From: Candidatus Hydrogenedentota bacterium
Lineage (GTDB): Bacteria; Hydrogenedentota; Hydrogenedentia; Hydrogenedentales; SLHB01
Length of the DNA: 64,000 nt
Assembly: GCA_963745075.1 (NCBI GenBank)
Contig: CAVUWV010000024.1
Coordinates: 192,001 to 256,000, forward strand
Direction: 5' to 3'
This document shows positions 4,671 through 56,735 of the stretch, piece after piece. Below the pieces are notes generated by a model. That model did not search any database and was not told where the DNA came from. It saw only the letters and a list, made by a program, of their open reading frames with translations. Within the stretch, counting starts at the first letter, position 1. The number at the start of each line of letters is the position of its first letter. The translations under genes and the position numbers were made by a program.

Positions 4671-5087
4671 TCAAGACTCCGGAACCCACACCCGCTCCTC
4701 GTAGGTTTCCCCGGATTCCGTCTTGACCGTTCTTGTTTCCCAATGTCCGGCCTGGGCTTGCGACGTTGGAGCGGGCGCTGGAGCAGGCTGCTGCGGCGGC
4801 GGAGCTTGCTGTACCTGCTGCGTCTGCTGCTGCCTCGCCCGGCGGTCGCGGTGTTCGTCCACTTGGTCCCCGATAAGCGCACCCGTGAGGGCGCCGACAC
4901 CCGCGCCGATCAGGGCCCCTTCGCCAGACCGTCCGTGGGATTGGTTACCGATGATTGCACCGGCCCCCGCTCCCAGCATGCCACCCGCGACCGCGCCTTC
5001 CTGCGTAGGAGTCGTATTGCAGCCCGTAAAGCCTCCCAAAACGAGGGCCATCAGGGCGATTCCCATCGTCGTTCGATTCATAGTCAT
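4671..5087 (-). CDS. Glycine-zipper lipoprotein (copy 2, Gln/Pro-rich tail)
   Basis: Lipobox FTGC, then GAGAGAIIG..GALIGAGVGALTGALIG; start uncertain by a few codons. Confidence 0.8.
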   Translation of the reverse strand: MTMNRTTMGIALMALVLGGFTGCNTTPTQEGAVAGGMLGAGAGAIIGNQSHGRSGEGALIGAGVGALTGALIGDQVDEHRDRRARQQQTQQVQQAPPPQQPAPAPAPTSQAQAGHWETRTVKTESGETYEERVWVPES

Positions 5088-5119
5088 TAGGGAACACCTC
5101 CCGGACCTTCTTGCTGTCA

Positions 5120-5365
5120 CTATTTGTTCTCTTTGTCTTTATGTTCGTCTACTTGATCGCCGATCAGGGCCCCACCGAGGGCGCCAACACCCGCGCCAAT
5201 CAGGGCCCCTTCACCGGTCTTGCCGGACTGGTTGCCGATTATCGCGCCGGCGCCAGCACCGACCGCGCCACCGGTCATGGCGCCTTTTTGGGTAGGGGTA
5301 GTGTTACAGCCGAAAGCTACGCTCGCGGCTAACACCGCTACGATCGTAAGAACACGTGTAACCAT
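5120..5365 (-). CDS. Glycine-zipper lipoprotein (copy 1)
   Basis: Lipobox AFGC, same glycine-zipper core. Confidence 0.8.
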   Translation of the reverse strand: MVTRVLTIVAVLAASVAFGCNTTPTQKGAMTGGAVGAGAGAIIGNQSGKTGEGALIGAGVGALGGALIGDQVDEHKDKENK

Positions 5366-9408: not shown

Positions 9409-11742
9409 TTACTCCTCGATGATGAAGCCGTGGTAGACCCCCATGTAGTAAGGCAGCAAGAATGAAGCGCCGTCGGACAAGTTGGTTCCGTTCCCGCCGT
9501 AATCGAGAGTCCACGGATCATGGTTCCAATGGTCCACAATGCGTTCGTCGATGGGAAGCACCCTCCCGCTCACACGATAGCCTCTCTTATCCCGGCCCAT
9601 GCTCCACTGAAGCGGAACGATGTCCAGACGGTGGCTGTTCTTCATTTCCCAGGCGATCAGGTCCAGCGGATAACGCTTCAGCGAATCGAGCGCCTCCTCA
9701 AAACACGACGTAGGCGCAGAAAAGGACCCTATCCGATAACCGCCGATCGAGGAAGTCGCGCCACTCAGGCTTGCCGCATAGATGTAGTTGAAAAGGGGGC
9801 ACAATTCCGGACTCTCCAGTCTCCAATAGCTGCTCAAGGAGTATGTATAGACTGTCCGGAGTACGGGGTCCGTCTCATACTTGAGCAGGTCGTAGTAGTC
9901 CATAAAGGCCATCTCGTCGTCAGATTGGTTGCCCGTGCCGGGGCCGGTCTGCATTTTGGGCATGAGCGTGTTTACTGCGTATCCGTGTTCCGTTACGAGC
10001 GAATCATAAGCCGCCCCAAACTTCGGATCGCCGGTAATGTGCTGAGCCGTCTTGAGGTAGGACAGAATACTCAGCGAATTGAGGCCGCGTGCACCGGCCC
10101 ATCGCGGGTCAAAGTTCAGGTCTTTCGGGCTGTAGCGGGCCCAGCGCGTGGGCTTGCCATCGTGGTCTACCAACTGGAAATCGTGGTCTACGAGATGGTC
10201 GGTGATGCGTTGAACGACTTCGCGGACACGCTCCTTCTCCTGCTCGGTTTCTGCCACCAAGTCATAGTAGGTCGCGTAGAAGAAGTAATGGCCGTCCAGT
10301 TCGTCCGAGCTGGTGTCGGACTTCCAGTACCATTGTCCATCCTCGCTGACCGGCCAGCGGGGGTCGATGACCTTCCACTGGGGATCGCGCTTTTGGGTCT
10401 CGCGATCTCGTTCTATTCGCCCTTCATTCGGGTCGGGACCGCTGGTCGGAAGGATGGTGCGGGCCGGAAACCCGGGAGGCGCGGGGTGGGTGCCGCCTTG
10501 AGTCACTTCGCTCAAAAAGGACACCGCTTCGAGAGCCTTGGTGGCCCGTCCCTTGGCTGCTGGGTCACCCGTGGCCGCGTAGGCAAAGCATTCCGAGGCA
10601 CCATACATACTGGTCCACAGACCGTCGTTGTCGCTGTCGTGTTTCTTGACGTTGGCTTTCACGCCGGGTTCCGGCAAGTTTACATCGAGAACATAGCCGA
10701 ACGGCGTGCGACGATGATACTTGTCAATCTCTTTCACGAAGAACTCCGCCTTGTCGCGCAGGGTGATAGGCCTCCGTTCAATCAGCCCCACACCGCTGGG
10801 CGTGGCAAACCAGGCGTTACCGTCTGGCGTGACCGCGATGGCACGAACTAAATCACTCGGAAGCCAGCGCTTTCCCTGGCGGTATTCCCAAGTCTCACCG
10901 TCGTAGCGGATTGCACCCAAGTCTGTGCCGAGCCAGACCACGCTTTCTTCGCCGGGAACAGCCACGGTGAACTGGTTGTAAGGGAGCCCTTCCTGGCCCG
11001 TGTAGAGGGTCCACTCGTGGTCCCGGCATCCCACACCCTGCGAACTCGCAAACCATAGGCGCCCTTGAATGTCGTAGGCCACACCGCGCACGTCGACGGG
11101 CGCCCAACTACGGCCCGCGCCATCCCGCGGGTGTATGGCTTCCCAGGAACCATTCATACGGACGAACAGTCCGGAGAGCGCCGCCACAGCGACCTCTCCG
11201 TCGAGTCCGGCGGCCACCTGACGCACTTCTTTGCTCGAGCCCAGCAAGCCATTGAGCGCCTCCACAGGGCGAAAGTCGGTTCCAGCCAACTCGAAAAGCC
11301 CTTGTCCCGTGCCCAAGTACGCCGTTTCGCCTTTCGCCAGACTAGTCAATTCTGAACTCTGAGGAACAGGCGAGATCCGTTTCGCATCGCCTTCAACCAC
11401 CCGATACAGAGCGTCGCCGGCAATAGCCAAGACGCCTGACACTTCCGGCGCGAGGGCAGATACCCGAGTGCCGGCCAACACGGAAAGACTCGACCACTGC
11501 CCTTCCTTGAAGCGAGCCAGCCCCTCGGCGGTGCCGGCGTAGATACTGCCGTCGGGCGCCACGGCCACAGCCAAGACGTCTTCGGACGGCAACCCGTCCT
11601 GGATGGTGTAAAACGTACGAACTTCCTGTTCGTACGTTGACACGCGAATGCCCTTCTCGTGACGTAGAGGTTCGGCGTAGCAGGTGAATCCGAACAGTAC
11701 GGCGCAGCTAGCAATCACGAACACAAACAGCGGTCGTTTCAT
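9409..11742 (-). CDS. Secreted protein with two-component-regulator-type beta-propeller repeats and a C-terminal helical barrel-like domain
   Basis: Signal peptide; GLPS..V.A.A...DG..Y/W.GT repeats; GGAGGGAG RBS before ATG 11742. Confidence 0.7.
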   Translation of the reverse strand: MKRPLFVFVIASCAVLFGFTCYAEPLRHEKGIRVSTYEQEVRTFYTIQDGLPSEDVLAVAVAPDGSIYAGTAEGLARFKEGQWSSLSVLAGTRVSALAPEVSGVLAIAGDALYRVVEGDAKRISPVPQSSELTSLAKGETAYLGTGQGLFELAGTDFRPVEALNGLLGSSKEVRQVAAGLDGEVAVAALSGLFVRMNGSWEAIHPRDGAGRSWAPVDVRGVAYDIQGRLWFASSQGVGCRDHEWTLYTGQEGLPYNQFTVAVPGEESVVWLGTDLGAIRYDGETWEYRQGKRWLPSDLVRAIAVTPDGNAWFATPSGVGLIERRPITLRDKAEFFVKEIDKYHRRTPFGYVLDVNLPEPGVKANVKKHDSDNDGLWTSMYGASECFAYAATGDPAAKGRATKALEAVSFLSEVTQGGTHPAPPGFPARTILPTSGPDPNEGRIERDRETQKRDPQWKVIDPRWPVSEDGQWYWKSDTSSDELDGHYFFYATYYDLVAETEQEKERVREVVQRITDHLVDHDFQLVDHDGKPTRWARYSPKDLNFDPRWAGARGLNSLSILSYLKTAQHITGDPKFGAAYDSLVTEHGYAVNTLMPKMQTGPGTGNQSDDEMAFMDYYDLLKYETDPVLRTVYTYSLSSYWRLESPELCPLFNYIYAASLSGATSSIGGYRIGSFSAPTSCFEEALDSLKRYPLDLIAWEMKNSHRLDIVPLQWSMGRDKRGYRVSGRVLPIDERIVDHWNHDPWTLDYGGNGTNLSDGASFLLPYYMGVYHGFIIEE

Positions 11743-17004: not shown

Positions 17005-18481
17005 CTAGGAAAACTGTAACGGCAACGTGCGAATTTCCCGCGTTTCCAAGTCCGCAACAACGACGCGATGGTTGTTGGTGTCCGCGATGTACAAGGCTCC
17101 ATTGCACGCTGTAACCCCGCTCGGTTCGTTCAACCCGGCATCCTCACCTTCGCCGCCACCTGGTTTGCCCGTTCCAACAAAGTTTTCGACAGTCCCGGTG
17201 GCCGGATACAGCACCTTGATCCGGTGATTGTATGTGTCCGCGATGAAGACCTTGCCGTCATGCCAGCAGACGCCGAGGGGATGCTGCAAGCGGGCGGCCT
17301 TCACGGGCCCCACACGATCGCCGAATTCGAACAACCCGGAACCGATTATCGTTTCCACCTCGCCGGAAGCACGCAGATCGCACCTGCGCACCGCGCTGAC
17401 TTCGCTGTCCGCGAAATAGAGGGAGTTACCCTTTATCGCAAGACCGCTCGGTTGGGCCAACTGTGCCGATTGGCCGGGCCCGTCCAGCAAGTTCTCCACG
17501 CCGGAACCGGCGAACAGGCGGAAATTGCGCGTCTCGACAGCGGCCCGCCAGATCTGATGAGAGCCCGCCATCGCTACGTAAAGCATATTATCGGCGGTTT
17601 CCACGTCCCACGGTGAGCTGAGCGGCGTGCCCTCGCCGCCCGTCATAGTCCGAAAATCACCTTGTATGCCGTTACCGCCAAACGTAGCAACACGCCGTGC
17701 CGCGAGGTGCAACGCGCGCACCGCGTGATTCGCCGTGTCGGCAACGTAGAGCACGTTATCTCGGAGGGCCATTCCTTGCGGGCGATGGAACCGGGCCTCT
17801 TCAAACGATCCGTCTTCGAGCCCATGCTCGCACGAGCCCGCCACATCCTGAACCGCGCCATCGAAGCCGCAGATTAGGATTCGGTTGTGATTCGTGTCCG
17901 CGATGAATAGTCGCGAATCGGCTCCGTCCGCGAGCACTTTACCGGGAAAAAGGAGTGATCGCAGGTCCAATGCGGCCGTCGTCTCACCAAAAACCATCGG
18001 TGTCTCGTCCAGGGAACCGTGTGCCCGGTGGTAACTCACCAGGTTCTCGATGAGCACGTCCATCTCGTCCCGATGTCCTTCACCGGAAAACGCCGCGACC
18101 ACCTCGCCATCGGGATCGATCAAGCAGAGCGTCGGCCAGGCCTGCGCACCGTACGCTTTCCAGATCCGGTATTCCCCGTCGTTAATCACGGGATGGGTAA
18201 TCCCGTGACGGACTACGGCACGCCGAACCGGTTCAAGTTGCCGCTCGTTCTCGAACTTGCCCGCATGAACCCCGATCACCACCAACTGATTGGGATACTT
18301 GGCTTCGAGGTAGGACACATCAGTAAGCACGTGCATGCAATTGATGCAGCAGGACGTTCCAGAAGTCCAGCAACACCACCTTGCCGCGGAGATCGCTCAC
18401 GCGCAACGGCGCGTCGCAATTCAGCCATTCCAATGCACCGTCCAACTCCGGAGCCAATCCGAAGGTCTCGTACCCCGCCAT
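17005..18481 (-). CDS. Thioredoxin-like plus NHL-repeat protein (NHLRC2-like); frameshift near 18358
   Basis: LRGKVVLLDFW then CCINCMH after removing one base; many ADT.NHR NHL repeats; GGAGG RBS. Confidence 0.85.
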
Positions 18482-32755: not shown

Positions 32756-33103
32756 TCATGAGCCCCGATCCTCTTTCGGCCTAACCTTCCAGCGCCACTT
32801 GTATTTGAAGAAGACCGATGCCTTGTCGAGATCGGCATCGACATCCGCGCTCAGGCCCTTTTGTCTTCCGATATTCAAGGTGGGCTTCCCCTCGTCATCC
32901 ATCTGAATCGCCGCCCGCGTGGCGTCTTTTCGGCCCGCGAGCACCCACTCGCCGTTGTCCATTCGTTTTTCACGAGCCGTCAGTTCCCACTCGTGCTGCT
33001 GGTGTTGAGACCATGCCTTCGAGAAGGGCTGGTCACGGGGGAGCTGCGTTACGCAACCCAGTGACGGAAGCAGAAAGAGCAAAACTAAGACGGCAAATCG
33101 CAT
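32756..33103 (-). CDS. Hypothetical lipoprotein
   Basis: Lipobox SLGC. Confidence 0.6.
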   Translation of the reverse strand: MRFAVLVLLFLLPSLGCVTQLPRDQPFSKAWSQHQQHEWELTAREKRMDNGEWVLAGRKDATRAAIQMDDEGKPTLNIGRQKGLSADVDADLDKASVFFKYKWRWKVRPKEDRGS

Positions 33104-33193
33104 GATGACCGATCTTCGGGATTTCGTCCGCGTTGCATATCGCCTACCGGATCACATTATACTCCCAGCCTGTTCTCCAAGGGGGCGAAGCCG

Positions 33194-48079: not shown

Positions 48080-48159
48080 CCGTCATCCTGAGCTTGCGAA
48101 GGATCTCATCCTCCCGACGCCCGACTGACCAGAGATCCTTCGCAAGCTCAGGATGACGG
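48080..48159. repeat. Palindromic element with perfect 28-bp arms
   Basis: CCGTCATCCTGAGCTTGCGAAGGATCTC (48080-48107) and its exact reverse complement (48132-48159). Confidence 0.9.
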
Positions 48160-50458: not shown

Positions 50459-50788
50459 ATGCCAGATCGACCAGCAATTACAGCGGATTTGTACCGAAGG
50501 GTCATGGTTGAGGCAGGCTTTCGCTGCGCTATTCCTACCTGTCAACATCCAGATGTCGTGGTCCATCATATAGTTCCGTGGTCAAAGTGCAAGGAGCACT
50601 CCTTTCCGAATCTAATCGCTCTCTGTCCAAACTGTCACATGCGTGCTGATTTGGGAAAGATTGACCGAAAGGCACTCCGAATGTACAAGGCGCGCTTAGC
50701 TTCCTTGTTCCACTATCCGGACATGGAGCTAGAGTGCGTCGCCGATTCTGCGGCCGCTGACCAACGTGAAGATGTACGCTGCGGATGA
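50459..50788 (+). CDS. HNH endonuclease domain (probable N-terminal half of a fusion)
   Basis: RCAIPTC..VHHIVPW..NLIALCPNCH. Confidence 0.85.
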   Translation: MPDRPAITADLYRRVMVEAGFRCAIPTCQHPDVVVHHIVPWSKCKEHSFPNLIALCPNCHMRADLGKIDRKALRMYKARLASLFHYPDMELECVADSAAADQREDVRCG

Positions 50789-51698: not shown

Positions 51699-53053
51699 AT
51701 GAAGTCTGAGAAAGCATACATACAGACCTTTGGCTGTCAGATGAACGAGCATGACAGTTTCCGGATGATGGAGGTCTTCGGCCGTGAGGGGTTTCAATTC
51801 ACCCAGAACCCGGAGGAGGCGTCGTTGATTCTGCTGAACACGTGTTCGGTGCGGGAGAATCCGGAGAACAAGGTCTACAGTCTGTTGGGGCGGCTGCGGA
51901 AGTTGAAGCAGCGGGACCCGGATCTCATCATCGGCGTGGGCGGGTGCGTGGCGCAGCAGGAGGGCGAGACCATCCTGAAGCGCGAGAAGACGGTCGACAT
52001 GGTCTTTGGTCCGGACAACTTCTTCAAGCTGCCGGAGATGATCGCGTCGGTGCGGCGGGGCGAGCGGGTGTTGATGACGAAGTGGATGTCCCGCCGTGGC
52101 GGGACGGACCGCGTCCAGAATTTTGTGCCCGAGGAATGGGTCGAAGGCGGGCACGTGGAGGGGTGCAAGGCCTACGTGTCCATCACGAAGGGCTGCGACA
52201 ACTTCTGCACGTTCTGCATCGTGCCGTTCACGCGGGGGCGGGAAGTCAGCCGCGAGGCGGACAACATCCTGCGGGAAGTGCGGGACCTCGTCGAGCCGCG
52301 GCGCGAAGGAAATCTGGTTGCTGGGCCAGAACGTGAATTCGTATCGGGCCCACGACGTGGGGTTCTACGAACTGCTGGACCAGGTGTCGCAGGTCGAGGG
52401 GTTGATGCGCGTGCGGTTCACGTCGCCCCATCCCAACGATTGGAACAACCGGTTGTCCGACCTCATGGCCGAACGGCCGACGATCTGCAACCAGTTGCAC
52501 CTGCCGTTCCAGGCGGGGTCCGACCGCATGCTGCCGATGATGAACCGGGGCCATACCATCGACGAGTACCTGGCAGAAAGTGCGGTACATGCGCGCGATC
52601 AACCCGTCCATCGAAATCAGCACGGACCTCATCGTCGGGTTCCCGACGGAGTCGGACGACGATTTTGAGGGGACGCTCCGCGTCGTCGAGGAAGTCGGGT
52701 TCAGCCAGATCTTCCCCTTCAAATACTCGACGCGTCCCAACACGAAGGCCGCGAAGATGGAGGACGACGTCCCCCGCGCGGTGAAGGAAGAACGGCTGGC
52801 GCGGGTCATCGCGTTGCAGGAACGCATCACCCACGAGCGCACGGCGCACTACGTCGGCACCGAGCAGGACGTCCTCATCGACGCCGCCAACCCGCGTCGA
52901 CGCAACGCCATGAACGGCCGGACGGATGGGTTCCGCCCGATCACCGTCTCCGGCGGCGATTTCGAGATCGGCGATATGGTCCGGGTCCGCGTCACCGCCG
53001 CCAACTTGCATTGGTTGGAAGCGGAACCGGTGAGCGTGGCCGCAGGCGTCTGA
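51699..53053 (+). CDS. miaB: tRNA-2-methylthio-N6-dimethylallyladenosine synthase MiaB (frameshifts near 52293 and 52575)
   Basis: TFGCQMNEHDS, NTCSVRE, GCDNFCTFCIVP radical SAM motif, LLGQNVNSY, TDLIVGFP, TRAM domain. Confidence 0.9.
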
Positions 53054-53061
53054 ACCGGACG

Positions 53062-53228
53062 GAAGAACATCCCCCTTGATCCCCCTTCAAAGGGGGAATT
53101 CCGAACACCCAAGTCTGTTGGCATACGTGCGGCCGAGTGACAACGGTAAGGTTCTGGTAGCCGACCACGCAACGCAAAGCGTTGTGTATCATTCCCCCTT
53201 TGAAGGGGGATCAAGGGGGATGTTCTTC
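53062..53228 (+). repeat. ~166-bp palindromic unit, copy 1
   Basis: Perfect 38-bp arms GAAGAACATCCCCCTTGATCCCCCTTCAAAGGGGGAAT (53062-53099) and 53191-53228; 91-nt spacer. Confidence 0.95.
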
Positions 53229-53265
53229 TCGTGTTCTTTGCGTTCTCCTGGTGGCAATTTCTCCC

Positions 53266-53294
53266 TTCACTTCACCGGTTTCGGTCGGTATAAT
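53266..53294 (+). promoter_or_regulatory. sigma70 promoter of folD (leaderless candidate)
   Basis: TTCACT-17 nt-TATAAT, 7 nt before ATG 53302, no SD. Confidence 0.6.
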
Positions 53295-53301
53295 CCCGCC
53301 T

Positions 53302-54150
53302 ATGTCTACACAAGCCAGTATCATGGACGGCAAGACCGTCTCCAAGCAGATCCTCGACAATTGTGCGAACCGGGTGAAATCCATCGTGGAACGGACCGGC
53401 GTGACGCCGTGTCTGGCGACGGTGTTGGTGGGGAGCGACCCGGGCTCGGCGACCTACGTGAAGATGAAGGTCCGGCGGTGCGAAGCCGTGGGCATGAAAT
53501 CGTTGCGGGTCGACATGACGGAGACCACGACGACCGAAGAACTCGTCGCGAAGATCGCGGAGTTGAGCAATGACCCCGCCATCCACGGCATCCTGCTGCA
53601 ACACCCCGTGCCGAGCCAGATCGACGAGCGTGCGGCGTTTGAAGCCATTGTGCCGAGCAAAGACGTAGACGGGGTGACCATCCACAGCTTCGGGACGACG
53701 AGTTTCGATCTGCCCGGCTTCGGGTCCTGCACGCCCGCGGGCATGATGCGGCTGCTCGACCACTACAAGGTGGAGATTAAGGGCAAGCATGCCGTCGTTA
53801 TCGGGCGCAGTCCCATCCTCGGAAAACCCATGGCGATGATGCTCCTTGCGCGGCATGCGACCGTGACCATCTGCCATTCCCGCACGCAGAACCTTCCCGA
53901 TGTATGCCGTCAGGCGGACATCCTCGTCGCGGCGGTCGGCAAGCCGGAGTTCGTCAAGGGCGACTGGGTGAAGGAAGGGGCGATCGTGCTCGATGCCGGG
54001 TACAACGAGGGCAACGTGGGCGACGTCCATTACGAAGGTGCGGCGGCGCGCGCGAGCATGATTACGCCGGTGCCCGGCGGGGTCGGTCCCATGACCATCG
54101 CCACGCTCATCGACCAAACCGCTGACGCCGCAGAACGGCTGATCAAATAG
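53302..54150 (+). CDS. folD: Bifunctional methylenetetrahydrofolate dehydrogenase/cyclohydrolase
   Basis: S.TYV.MK, HGILLQHP, KDVDG, GRSPILGKP, TPVPGGVGPMT. Confidence 0.95.
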   Translation: MSTQASIMDGKTVSKQILDNCANRVKSIVERTGVTPCLATVLVGSDPGSATYVKMKVRRCEAVGMKSLRVDMTETTTTEELVAKIAELSNDPAIHGILLQHPVPSQIDERAAFEAIVPSKDVDGVTIHSFGTTSFDLPGFGSCTPAGMMRLLDHYKVEIKGKHAVVIGRSPILGKPMAMMLLARHATVTICHSRTQNLPDVCRQADILVAAVGKPEFVKGDWVKEGAIVLDAGYNEGNVGDVHYEGAAARASMITPVPGGVGPMTIATLIDQTADAAERLIK

Positions 54151-54151
54151 G

Positions 54152-54316
54152 GAAGAACATCCCCCTTGATCCCCCTTCAAAGGGGGAGTTTTGCTCATGT
54201 CCGTGTGTCGACTTTTACGTCGTACTTTGTCTCGAAGCGGGATCGTTGGCGACCCATAACGCAACGCAACGCGTTGCGGAGAATTCCCCCTTTGAAGGGG
54301 GATCTAGGGGGATGTT
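54152..54316 (+). repeat. ~166-bp palindromic unit, copy 2 (upstream of DUF559 gene)
   Basis: Same arms as copy 1; right arm variant GATCTAGGGGG; begins 1 nt after the folD stop. Confidence 0.95.
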
Positions 54317-54376
54317 ATCTTATCTATCACAGATGGTTAAGCTTGCCTGCCGAACCGAGGGGGGACTTACGAATCA

Positions 54377-54781
54377 GTGTCGAGGCGCAATCGGATAGTG
54401 GCGTACAACGCTAAACTGCGTCCGCTGGCGCGCGCGTTGCGAAAGAATAGTCCGTTGGCGGAAATCGTACTCTGGCGATCATTGAAGGGAAAAGCGCTGG
54501 GATGTGAGTTTCACCGGCAGGTTCCAGTTGATGAGTACATAATCGATTTCTTCTGTCACGAACATTTGATCGCAATTGAGATTGATGGTTCCAGTCATGA
54601 TCCGCTTGGCGGATATGCCCGCGATCAGGCCAAAGACGAACGCTTGCGTACTCTCGGGGTACGTGTATTGCGCTTTCGCGATACGCGAGTACTCAAAAAT
54701 GTCAAAGGTGTCGTTGATGAGATTCGCGGCGTTCTCGACAAAAGTGAAACCGGCGATTCACGACCTGTTGGATTGCAATGA
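54377..54781 (+). CDS. DUF559 / Vsr-like PD-(D/E)xK endonuclease
   Basis: ARALRKN..AE..LW..L, FHRQ, YIIDFFC, IEIDG..H, RD..L..LG.RVLRF. Confidence 0.9.
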   Translation: MSRRNRIVAYNAKLRPLARALRKNSPLAEIVLWRSLKGKALGCEFHRQVPVDEYIIDFFCHEHLIAIEIDGSSHDPLGGYARDQAKDERLRTLGVRVLRFRDTRVLKNVKGVVDEIRGVLDKSETGDSRPVGLQ

Positions 54782-54945
54782 AGAACATCCCCCTTGATCC
54801 CCCTTCAAAGGGGGAATTTGGCTTATCCTCGTTTGAGGTGATTTACGTCTGGATGTGATCCGAGAGTAGGTTGTCGCTGGCCCCTAAGCGCGACGCAAAG
54901 CGTCGCGTACAATTCCCCCTTTGAAGGGGGATCTAGGGGGATGTT
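54780..54945 (+). repeat. ~166-bp palindromic unit, copy 3 (downstream of DUF559 gene)
   Basis: Left arm overlaps the TGA stop at 54779-54781; right arm variant GATCTAGGGGG as in copy 2. Confidence 0.95.
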
Positions 54946-55045
54946 TTCTTAACGCAACTTTGCGCCGGGAAACTCAGATTGCGTGAGCATCCCCGGCCCT
55001 GGGAAGGTGGGATTAAGAGCGAGTCACGTGCGGTAGGAGTTTGGC

Positions 55046-56538
55046 ATGGAAACGGAAGTTCTGATTGCAACGAAGATTGAGGCAGACGGTCCGACGGCGT
55101 TGGTGGTGCCGGTCGCGGAAGACCATACTGGGCCGCTGTTCAGAGCCACTTGGACGAAGCGGACGCCCGTGTCGCCGCGCGGGTACTCGAATCCGGCGTG
55201 TTCAAAGGGAAAGTGGGGGATGTCTATTGCTTCCCCGCCGTGGCGGGTCCGTACGTGTGCGTGGTGTTGGTGGGGCTAGGCAAGGGCGACGTTATCGACG
55301 CAGAGCAACTTCGCCGCGCGGGCGGCAAGGTGGTGGAGTCGCTGGGTCGCCACCGCATCGAGACCTGCGCGGTCGATTTGTCGAAGAACGCGGGCTGGCC
55401 GTGCGAGGCGCTGCTCGAAGGCATCGCTCTCGGACAATACCGTTTCGAGAAGTACAAGAAACCGTCGGAAGACGAACCGCAAATATCTGTCAGCAATTTC
55501 GTGCTGCTGAACGGCGATGACGCGGTCAAGGAGCGGTGTTGCCACGCATTGGCCTTGTGCGAAAACGCGAACTGGGCGCGCGACCTTGCCAACCGGTCAT
55601 CCAACGACCTCACGCCGGGCCAACTGGCCTTCGAGGCGCGCGGTATTGCCGAGCACCACGATTGTTGCAGCTACGATTTCATCGACGAAGGTCGCATGCT
55701 CGAACTCGGTATGAACGCCCTGCTCGGCGTGACGCGCGGGGCGACCGAACCGGCCAAGGTCATCATTCTCAATTACCATTGCTGCCCCGACGCGCCGACC
55801 CTGGCCATCGTGGGGAAGGGCATTACCTTCGATACCGGCGGCGTCAGCATCAAACCGTCGCAGGGTATGGAAGAGATGAAGTTCGACATGTGCGGTGCGG
55901 CGGCGGTGCTTGGCGCGATGCGCACCGTCGTGCAGACCCGCCCGGGGATCAACGTGGTCTGCGTCGCGCCGGCCGCGGAGAACGTGGTCGGGTCCCGCGC
56001 GCAAAAGCCCGGCGATATCGTGCGCGCCTACAACGGCAAGACCATCGAAGTGAACAACACCGATGCCGAAGGACGGCTCATCCTCGCGGACGCGCTGGCC
56101 TACACGGCAGAACAGTATCAGCCCGACAAGATGGTCGATCTGGCGACCCTGACCGGCGCGGCTATCGTCGCCCTGGGCCATTACGCGGCAGGCGTCATGG
56201 CTACGGATGATGCGTTATACGCGTCGTTGCAGGCCGCGGCAGACGCCACTGGCGAACGCATCTGGCGGTTCCCCCTGTGGGACGACTACTCGAAACTGCT
56301 TGAAGGCACCCACGCGGACCTCAGCAATATCGGTCCGCCCAAGGAAGCTGGTACAATAATGGGTGGCTGTTTCCTGAAGGAATTCGTCGGCGACACCCCG
56401 TGGGCGCATATCGACATCGCGGGCACGGCCTGGGGCGGGAAAAACATCCCGTACCTGAACCCGAAACATGCCACCGGCTACGGTGTGCGCATGCTCTCAG
56501 AATGGATACGGCGAGAAGCCGGCATTGTGAACTCTTAG
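55046..56538 (+). CDS. pepA: Leucyl aminopeptidase, M17 family (frameshift near 55140)
   Basis: GKGITFDTGG.SIK, MKFDM.GAA, NTDAEGRL.LAD, ATLTGA, HIDIAG; AGGAG RBS. Confidence 0.9.
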
Positions 56539-56569
56539 GTCGTTCGATAGTCAATCCAAGGATTTGAGG

Positions 56570-56735
56570 GAACATCCCCCTTGATCCCCCTTCAAAGGGG
56601 GAATTCGTCGCAATGCTTTGCGTTGCGGTTCAGAGATGCTGGGTACACGCCTCGTAAGCCAGAGTCATTCGGCAACTACCGAAAACTACGATGAGCCCAA
56701 TTCCCCCTTTCGAAGGGGGATCAAGGGGGATGTTC
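56570..56735 (-). repeat. ~166-bp palindromic unit, copy 4 (inverted spacer polarity)
   Basis: Same arms with one extra C in the right arm; internal hairpin lies next to the left arm. Confidence 0.95.

Follow-up and report, generated by a model that had tools for sequence, protein, structure and literature searches.

We analysed a 64,000-nt stretch of DNA (the window) from a Candidatus Hydrogenedentota bacterium, contig CAVUWV010000024.1, in which the gene for a small endonuclease of the DUF559 family lies between two paired inverted repeats (doublets), with further doublets behind neighbouring genes. To our knowledge, DUF559 is a very common nuclease family almost without an assigned role. 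The studied genome (G000) measures 6.8 Mb and is 89.7% complete; G001 to G005 are its congeners. Coordinates are positions in the window unless prefixed with C, which denotes contigs of G000. The locus comprises the following features:

53062-53228, plus strand: doublet 1, a solo copy 3′ of miaB (arms 53062-53099 and 53191-53228; inner hairpin 53168-53186)
53302-54150, plus strand: folD, the host gene left of the cassette (PF02882, PF00763)
54152-54316, plus strand: doublet 2, 3′ of folD and upstream of the nuclease gene (inner hairpin 54260-54278; the right arm is the TCT loop variant)
54282-54817, plus strand: the core common across taxa, a reverse arm, the DUF559 gene and a forward arm, with the ACAT ends facing the gene
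54377-54781, plus strand: DUF559/YcjD-like Vsr-fold endonuclease, 134 aa, GTG start (PF04480, E 4e-27)
54780-54945, plus strand: doublet 3, overlapping the nuclease stop codon (inner hairpin 54889-54907)
55046-56538, plus strand: pepA (M17 aminopeptidase), the host gene right of the cassette (apparent 5′ frameshift; long open reading frame [ORF] from 55150)
56570-56735, minus strand: doublet 4, a solo copy 3′ of pepA with opposite polarity (inner hairpin 56609-56627)

The four inverted-arm units of ~166 bp described in the initial annotation are present, with lengths of 163-168 bp and arms of 33-38 nt. Arm complementarity is 94-100% within units 1, 3, and 4, and the arms of unit 2 are alike by inspection. 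The arm hairpin exists as described, but with a different loop: the 2 nt originally drawn become 7 pairs and a 4-nt loop when the arm is folded with ViennaRNA. Since the inner hairpin gives each unit a polarity, unit 4 is reversed relative to units 1-3. The gap to the upstream stop codon is 9 nt for miaB, 2 nt for folD, and ~30 nt for pepA; unit 3 overlaps the TGA of the DUF559 gene (54779-54781), whose GTG start at 54377 agrees with the gene starts in congeners. A start within ~30 nt of a stop codon thus holds for the four window units but is not general in the genome, where 22 out of 83 doublets lie ≤30 nt and 50 out of 83 lie ≤60 nt from a stop codon (doublet positions relative to genes are based on a crude ORF caller).

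The repeat is not merely local. A BLAST search of G000 recovers 236 arms, forming 104 inverted doublets and 28 singles, such that ~88% of arms belong to doublets; 88 doublets measure 155-172 bp (standard doublets). The 17-mer core has 193 exact copies in 6.8 Mb, compared with none for the reversed control, a difference far beyond chance. The spacers are of near-constant length and diverged, as originally observed (mean spacer-core identity 0.49, 2485 pairs), but they are not featureless. An inner hairpin stands beside one arm in 71 of the 88 standard doublets, with a strand-specific loop (AAA in 37, GAA in 19), and a related GAA-loop hairpin is found in nine further standard doublets. Such triloops form stable single-stranded DNA hairpins. 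The GATCTAGG right-arm variant, described initially as private to copies 2 and 3, proves instead to be rare: its TAGAT linker occurs in five of 236 arms, with two near-variants, and it alters only a loop of the triplex pattern described below.

Almost all doublets (98 out of 104) lie outside called ORFs. They cluster mildly, with 21 neighbours <6 kb apart, where the random expectation averages 8.9 and peaks at 18; the comparison is uncorrected for intergenic space. We see no excess of doublets between convergent genes (23/98 vs. 414/1771), and across 93 doublets no fixed-length repeat above background that would mark a target-site duplication at the doublet ends. A search of Rfam yields no family at threshold; one sub-threshold match lies outside the finding. 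The solo copies had been interpreted as progeny or scars of the cassette. Close descent of units 1 and 4 from units 2 and 3 is contradicted by their spacer cores (identity 0.48-0.55, background 0.49), and we rejected descent from neighbours for the solo units of G000 in general: pairs <6 kb apart have an identity of 0.507 (n = 16) and distant pairs 0.492. The part of the claim concerning scars fares better, as a solo allele in G005 resembles a deletion scar (see below).

The arms have a characteristic organization on the G-rich strand: a pyrimidine block, a loop, a purine block, a second loop, and a mirrored purine block. Using our own script, built on the criteria of Holder et al. (2015, PMC4666352) with a stem of at least 7, we find a perfect 8-triad pattern in all eight window arms and a qualifying pattern in 204 of the 236 genome arms, compared with two of 3000 random windows. 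The triplex pattern flanks 56/80 and 32/49 DUF559 loci, against 1/41 and 0/30 distal controls, and in the other arm types changes in the hairpin's purine strand are mirrored by changes in the third block. By sequence, the arms fit the class II purine-motif intrastrand triplex of BoxC/PIT/TM repeats, the fold itself being predicted. The initial annotation had compared the units with REPINs, the doublets mobilized by RAYT transposases; the REPIN-like doublets stand, but the triplex class of their arms had been missed. The TMECO-like two-block motif has no match in G000 and the arm sequence differs from the TMECO consensus, and we classify the repeat from its sequence as TM class but a different family from TMECO. 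The arms may be akin to the CIR repeats of Caulobacter, to RIME, and to the cyanobacterial SDR repeats. Known since the 1990s, BoxC/PIT/TM repeats are tied to genome instability but have no known mobilizer or function (Holder et al. 2015, PMC4666352); a TMECO oligonucleotide is reported there to fold into a triplex in vitro.

G000 contains only one DUF559 match, directly between two doublets. The protein, encoded by a free-standing ORF, is modelled as a single domain of 134 aa (mean predicted local distance difference test score, 86.5). Its best Foldseek match is 3HRL from N. gonorrhoeae (E 1.8e-7), which is also the best sequence match; weaker fold matches are the homing endonuclease I-Bth0305I (3r3p, E 2.8e-3) and Vsr (1vsr). 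Across 82 homologues, residues E29, E68, D70, and H74 never vary, and all but one (81) have D57. These positions appear to correspond to the catalytic residues reported in PMC3239194, and a mapping of the conserved residues onto those of Vsr can be proposed in the same way.

The association between the repeat and DUF559 suggested by this locus is found across taxa. Our metagenome sample comprises the best 80 of 583 loci of the nearest DUF559 clade. A strict arm pattern (preferred to a lax one, which over-called arms) is found at 71 of the 80 loci but in only nine of 179 distal windows. A general arm detector finds 156 arms in the 36,216 bp beside the gene, compared with 12 in 77,705 bp further off and 1.6 in shuffles; these arms occur upstream at 39/70 loci, downstream at 44/73, and on both sides at 30/63. 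Both flanks are available for 64 metagenome loci. The upstream flank contains a reverse arm in 44 of these and the downstream flank a forward arm in 50, with the two together in 40; outer arms are seen in just six and nine. Because the inner-arm geometry recurs and the outer arms seldom do, the conserved unit is arm-gene-arm (54282-54817) and not the longer cassette, 54152-54945, that had been put forward as the autonomous unit. Gene neighbours are diverse, with one recurring context (genes for a helix-hairpin-helix protein and a tyrosine recombinase), and the 57 neighbour ORFs scanned out of 109 candidates include no transposase and no C5 methyltransferase. A DUF559 single-protein scan returned two distant loci from genome contigs and 14 mostly distant matches from viral contigs.

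Arm sequence also covaries with the protein, a relationship that the initial annotation had suggested checking. On a tree of 79 proteins (30 drawn randomly from the 80 metagenome loci and 49 others, among them plasmid records from Sinorhizobium, Azospirillum, Deinococcus, cyanobacteria, Photobacterium, and Sphingomonas), arm type changes 15 times, against a shuffled mean of 34.9 (none of 200 shuffles as low). A stronger control is provided by genomes with two DUF559 clades: in each of G003, G005, G016, G035, and G054, each clade lies beside its own arm type.

In a sample of 135 genomes from the phylum, the clade is detected at E < 1e-40 in 16, all of which hold 32-274 arms; among the other 119 genomes, 26 have at least 10 arms. 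Two genomes, G097 and G100, were set aside, with weaker matches (E 1e-34 and 1e-38), no pattern hits, and variant arms beside the gene; if they are counted, 16 of the 18 genomes with the clade are arm-rich. Gene presence therefore predicts the repeat, since 16 of 16 clade genomes are arm-rich, yet the gene is not detected in many arm-rich genomes. The median number of arms in arm-rich genomes is ~88 where the gene is present and ~42 where it is not.

A similar association is visible in E. coli, where ycjD (DUF559) is present in 3378 of 5426 genomes, single-copy and at one locus in every row inspected. K-12 has 23 TMECO repeats, one of them 168 bp past the ycjD stop codon, and strain MS20675 has an intact doublet overlapping that stop codon. 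TMECO counts are 23, 27, 26, and 15 in four genomes with ycjD and 14, 16, 1, and 6 in four without, a 4-vs.-4 comparison confounded by phylogeny. Since related genes carry matching repeats in other bacteria, E. coli included, the nuclease is likely to be the missing partner that spreads this repeat class. As a separate observation, four E. coli genomes without ycjD (L300-L303) have a major facilitator superfamily transporter gene beside sapF at the ycjD position.

The relatives of G000 show the empty, solo, and cassette alleles whose comparison had been suggested. Between folD and pepA, the site is empty in G001 and G002, holds an arm and a doublet without the gene in G005, and holds the gene in G003 and G000. 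The downstream doublets of G005 and G003 at this site are 0.76 identical, and intergenic sequence suggests that G003 and G005 are closer to each other than to G000. It is therefore likely that direct-repeat arms recombined in G005 and deleted the gene, the remaining allele resembling a deletion scar. Overall, the gene occupies three loci in four congeners. At the second site, a cassette of 1063 bp in G005 corresponds to 94 bp in G003. The third has a cassette in G001, solo doublets in G000, G003, and G004, and a different repeat family in G002; the G002 locus (L191) is a REPIN-like doublet family standing where G001 has its DUF559 cassette. Several repeat families seem to replace each other at shared intergenic spots. 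The doublets flanking the gene are direct near-copies in G005 (identity 0.90) and G001 (0.73), 0.62 identical in G000, and unrelated in G003 and G035.

Two further ideas were examined at these sites and set aside. The empty-site pair of G005 and G003 is uninformative about target specificity because the junction coincides with the stop codon of the neighbouring gene, and the solo doublets of G000 are not recognizable as remnants of the G001 and G005 cassettes, their spacers being unrelated by eye. Separately, three congeners (G003, G004, and G005; loci L010, L012, and L030) have a second-clade DUF559 open frame of 318-372 aa inside a forward-reverse pair of another arm type; the orthologous G000 site (C31:~33050-33140) is without that gene.

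Doublets turn over rapidly and their spacers are found in both orientations. Out of 58 arm clusters in G003, 48 could be mapped to G000, where 17 have arms and 31 do not. The unit 1 site has no doublet in G003 and one forward arm in G005. Unit 4 has an orthologue in G003 (0.75), and the G003 unit upstream of the nuclease gene is a 0.76 inverted match to unit 4. For unit 3, the best of 160 comparisons in both G003 and G005 is an inverted match (identity 0.65 and 0.63), and unit 3 is likely to be the G003/G005 unit with its spacer flipped, judging from these alignments. A local doublet copy is seen once, in G003. Among 23 G004 doublets, 12 have a G003 orthologue: eight in the same orientation and four with the spacer inverted (0.75-0.93), although paralogy may underlie one of the inverted pairs, and the inversions could include assembly artefacts. 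Of the remaining doublets, three have no G003 doublet according to the script (one of them an inversion with a degenerate arm) and eight have no G003 locus to compare. One pair with a spacer identity of 0.67 between flanks of 0.94 raised the possibility of spacer hypermutation, which is not general, as the eight same-orientation pairs average 0.912 in the spacer and 0.920-0.938 in the flanks. The arms are 0.99 identical between close congeners, compared with 0.92-0.94 for the flanks. One published screen reports DUF559 genes to be over-represented in its set of predicted inversion targets (odds ratio 14.3; PMC9881135).

We estimate a probability of roughly 60% that the repeat has the DUF559 nuclease as its cognate enzyme. 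The arms would fold as an intrastrand triplex in single-stranded or supercoiled DNA; the DUF559 protein would bind and nick them; and host repair would then copy, flip, or delete units, so that the nuclease would play for the doublets the part that RAYT plays for REPINs. Spread would proceed by break repair or template switching, cut-and-paste being disfavoured because there is no target duplication, and recombination between arms would account for gain and loss of the gene. On this model, the nuclease would drive the spread of the repeat.

Several observations weigh against this interpretation. The TMECO triplex is reported as undetected in duplex DNA and by in vivo footprinting (PMC4666352). 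The majority of arm-rich phylum genomes (26 out of 42) show no cognate gene, including G007, which is 100% complete and has 58 arms, and the congener G002, which is 93% complete and has 146; the G001 copy of the gene has an internal stop; and the four ycjD-free E. coli genomes keep TMECO. The tree used for arm covariation is short and weakly resolved, its arm labels were set after viewing the sequences, and kin are non-independent and share labels. Whole intergenic tracts are often exchanged, in some cases for other repeat families, and a clean empty site or consistent junction was not found. In G000, the most recently duplicated doublet (0.97 identical) travelled as part of a larger element. 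This carrier of ~270 bp (C1:~401250-401530 and C31:~9918-10190) has imperfect terminal inverted repeats, 5-bp direct repeats that differ between sites, and the whole doublet mid-element; it resembles a MITE (a miniature transposable element with inverted repeats). Other related doublet pairs in G000 share arms and spacer only. Finally, a Caulobacter DUF559 protein has been proposed as a mismatch-repair enzyme (PMC12907096).

The main rival, which we regard as improbable, is that the gene is a selfish rider. The repeats would spread without it, through triplex-stalled replication and host repair, and the matching arms would serve it solely as recombination handles or homing targets when it moves. 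The many arm-rich genomes without the gene, its presence at three loci in four congeners, the direct near-copies that flank it in G005 and G001, and the resemblance of its fold to the nuclease domain of I-Bth0305I all agree with such a role, as does the reported instability of TM loci in E. coli (PMC4666352). Against it, arms are kept better than flanks in close congeners, arm-rich genomes with the gene hold about twice the median number of arms, and ycjD in E. coli is single-copy and at one locus in the rows inspected. REPIN populations, too, are reported to persist, and to decay, after RAYT loss (10.1101/2021.07.10.451892).

It is less probable still that DUF559 is a host repair enzyme, either very-short-patch-like or a resolver of triplexes or hairpins, the flanking repeats being a relic of its arrival. 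The Vsr fold and the conserved acidic and histidine residues would suit that function, and in Caulobacter the DUF559-domain protein VsrA triggers the SOS response in a methyltransferase mutant, its gene being unlinked to that methyltransferase gene (PMC12907096). However, a C5 methyltransferase (PF00145) has no match in G000, at 89.7% completeness, or among the 57 scanned neighbour ORFs, and the patchy distribution of the gene, its unstable position, and the covariation of arm sequence with protein clade speak against it.

We give little credence to a third explanation, in which some other transposase (a RAYT or a DDE enzyme) would mobilize the doublets in trans as MITE- or REPIN-type elements, the nuclease gene being just a frequent neighbour. 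G000 does have 16 Y1 transposase matches, and one doublet pair travelled in the carrier element with its terminal inverted repeats and 5-bp direct repeats. However, not one of the 16 Y1 loci lies between these arms; we accordingly rejected a RAYT, and regard an insertion sequence (IS) as unlikely, as the repeat's partner. The initial annotation had stated that such a partner would refute its proposal. The arm nearest to a Y1 gene is a truncated one of 21 nt, 206 bp upstream (C31:12900-13600), and that gene has its own, different inverted repeats. The 93 doublets without target duplication argue in the same direction, as does the absence of a transposase among the 57 of 109 neighbour ORFs scanned, no genome-wide search for IS ends having been made. 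Most improbable of all is that the units are kept behind genes as RNA-level signals (terminators or mRNA stabilizers): proximity to stop codons (50/83 doublets ≤60 nt) and terminator-like scores of the arms (11 sites vs. 4.0 in shuffles) speak for it, but there is neither a convergent-gene excess nor an Rfam family at threshold, turnover of positions is rapid (G000 lacks an arm at 31 of the 48 G003 sites mapped), and it is reported that RNA does not adopt the purine-motif triplex and that PIT elements have no terminator activity (PMC4666352).

A wider version of the cognate-enzyme interpretation can be offered tentatively, at somewhat less than even odds: DUF559/YcjD proteins may be triplex-DNA-specific nickases that copy and rearrange cognate BoxC/TM repeats, constituting a second REPIN-like replicator of independent origin, built on a PD-(D/E)xK enzyme and extending from this phylum to K-12. 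If true, recognition of three-stranded DNA by a small nuclease would represent a novel type of specificity. A full-text search found no paper linking DUF559 or ycjD to these repeats, although subscription papers and supplements could bear on this; in their available text, PMC3424549, PMC3184786, and PMC3733652 do not make the link between DUF559 and the repeats. With DUF559 and TM repeats paired, each becomes directly testable, E. coli K-12 included, and G000 is an unusually clean case, with one gene, ~100 doublets, and relatives that have empty, solo, and cassette alleles as well as flipped spacers.

Several other features of the window are separate from the nuclease and its repeat. The miaB gene (51699-53053) is spread over three frames (ORFs 51699-52784, 52096-52668, and 52580-53053), giving one long match when aligned in congeners, and pepA has a 5′ frameshift at 55046-55150. 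Both frame breaks are probably assembly indels, so single-base arm variants may also be errors. At 48080-48159 there is a perfect 28-nt inverted pair of a separate family, resembling CGTC-type repetitive extragenic palindromes, whose core motif occurs 54 times in the genome. Direct repeats are found at 4852-5215 (74 nt, two copies) and 17062-17907 (30 nt, three copies), and a small HNH endonuclease ORF (50459-50788) lies amid an unannotated gene cluster upstream of miaB.

Among known systems, this one operates like REPIN-RAYT, but its enzyme places it outside that group. The two have in common inverted palindromic arms around a variable spacer, ~100 extragenic copies, and a partner gene that is single-copy and has the repeat at its flanks (10.1101/2021.07.10.451892). 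In contrast to REPIN-RAYT, the partner here is a Vsr-fold PD-(D/E)xK nuclease and not an HUH tyrosine transposase, the arms are triplex-type, and the gene changes locus within the genus, RAYTs being reported typically to stay put. With BoxC/PIT/TM repeats (Holder et al. 2015, PMC4666352) the arms share the three blocks with short loops, an intergenic location, frequent inverted pairing, copy numbers that differ among relatives, and unstable loci. They differ in having 7-8 triads of C5/G5, compared with nine in the TMECO consensus, and in the high proportion of doublets, the near-constant spacer, and the inner hairpin; that publication, in the part of its text available, names no partner enzyme and contains neither the word ycjD nor the word endonuclease. 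The nuclease is like Vsr, VsrA (PMC12907096), and 3HRL in its fold and catalytic-type residues, but it differs in that no match to a C5 methyltransferase was obtained from its genome (89.7% complete) and its gene is tied to repeats. With the EDxHD homing endonuclease I-Bth0305I (PMC3239194) it shares a Vsr-like nuclease domain, which there serves a selfish element; unlike the EDxHD homing endonucleases, it has no separate N-terminal DNA-binding region and no intron or intein host.

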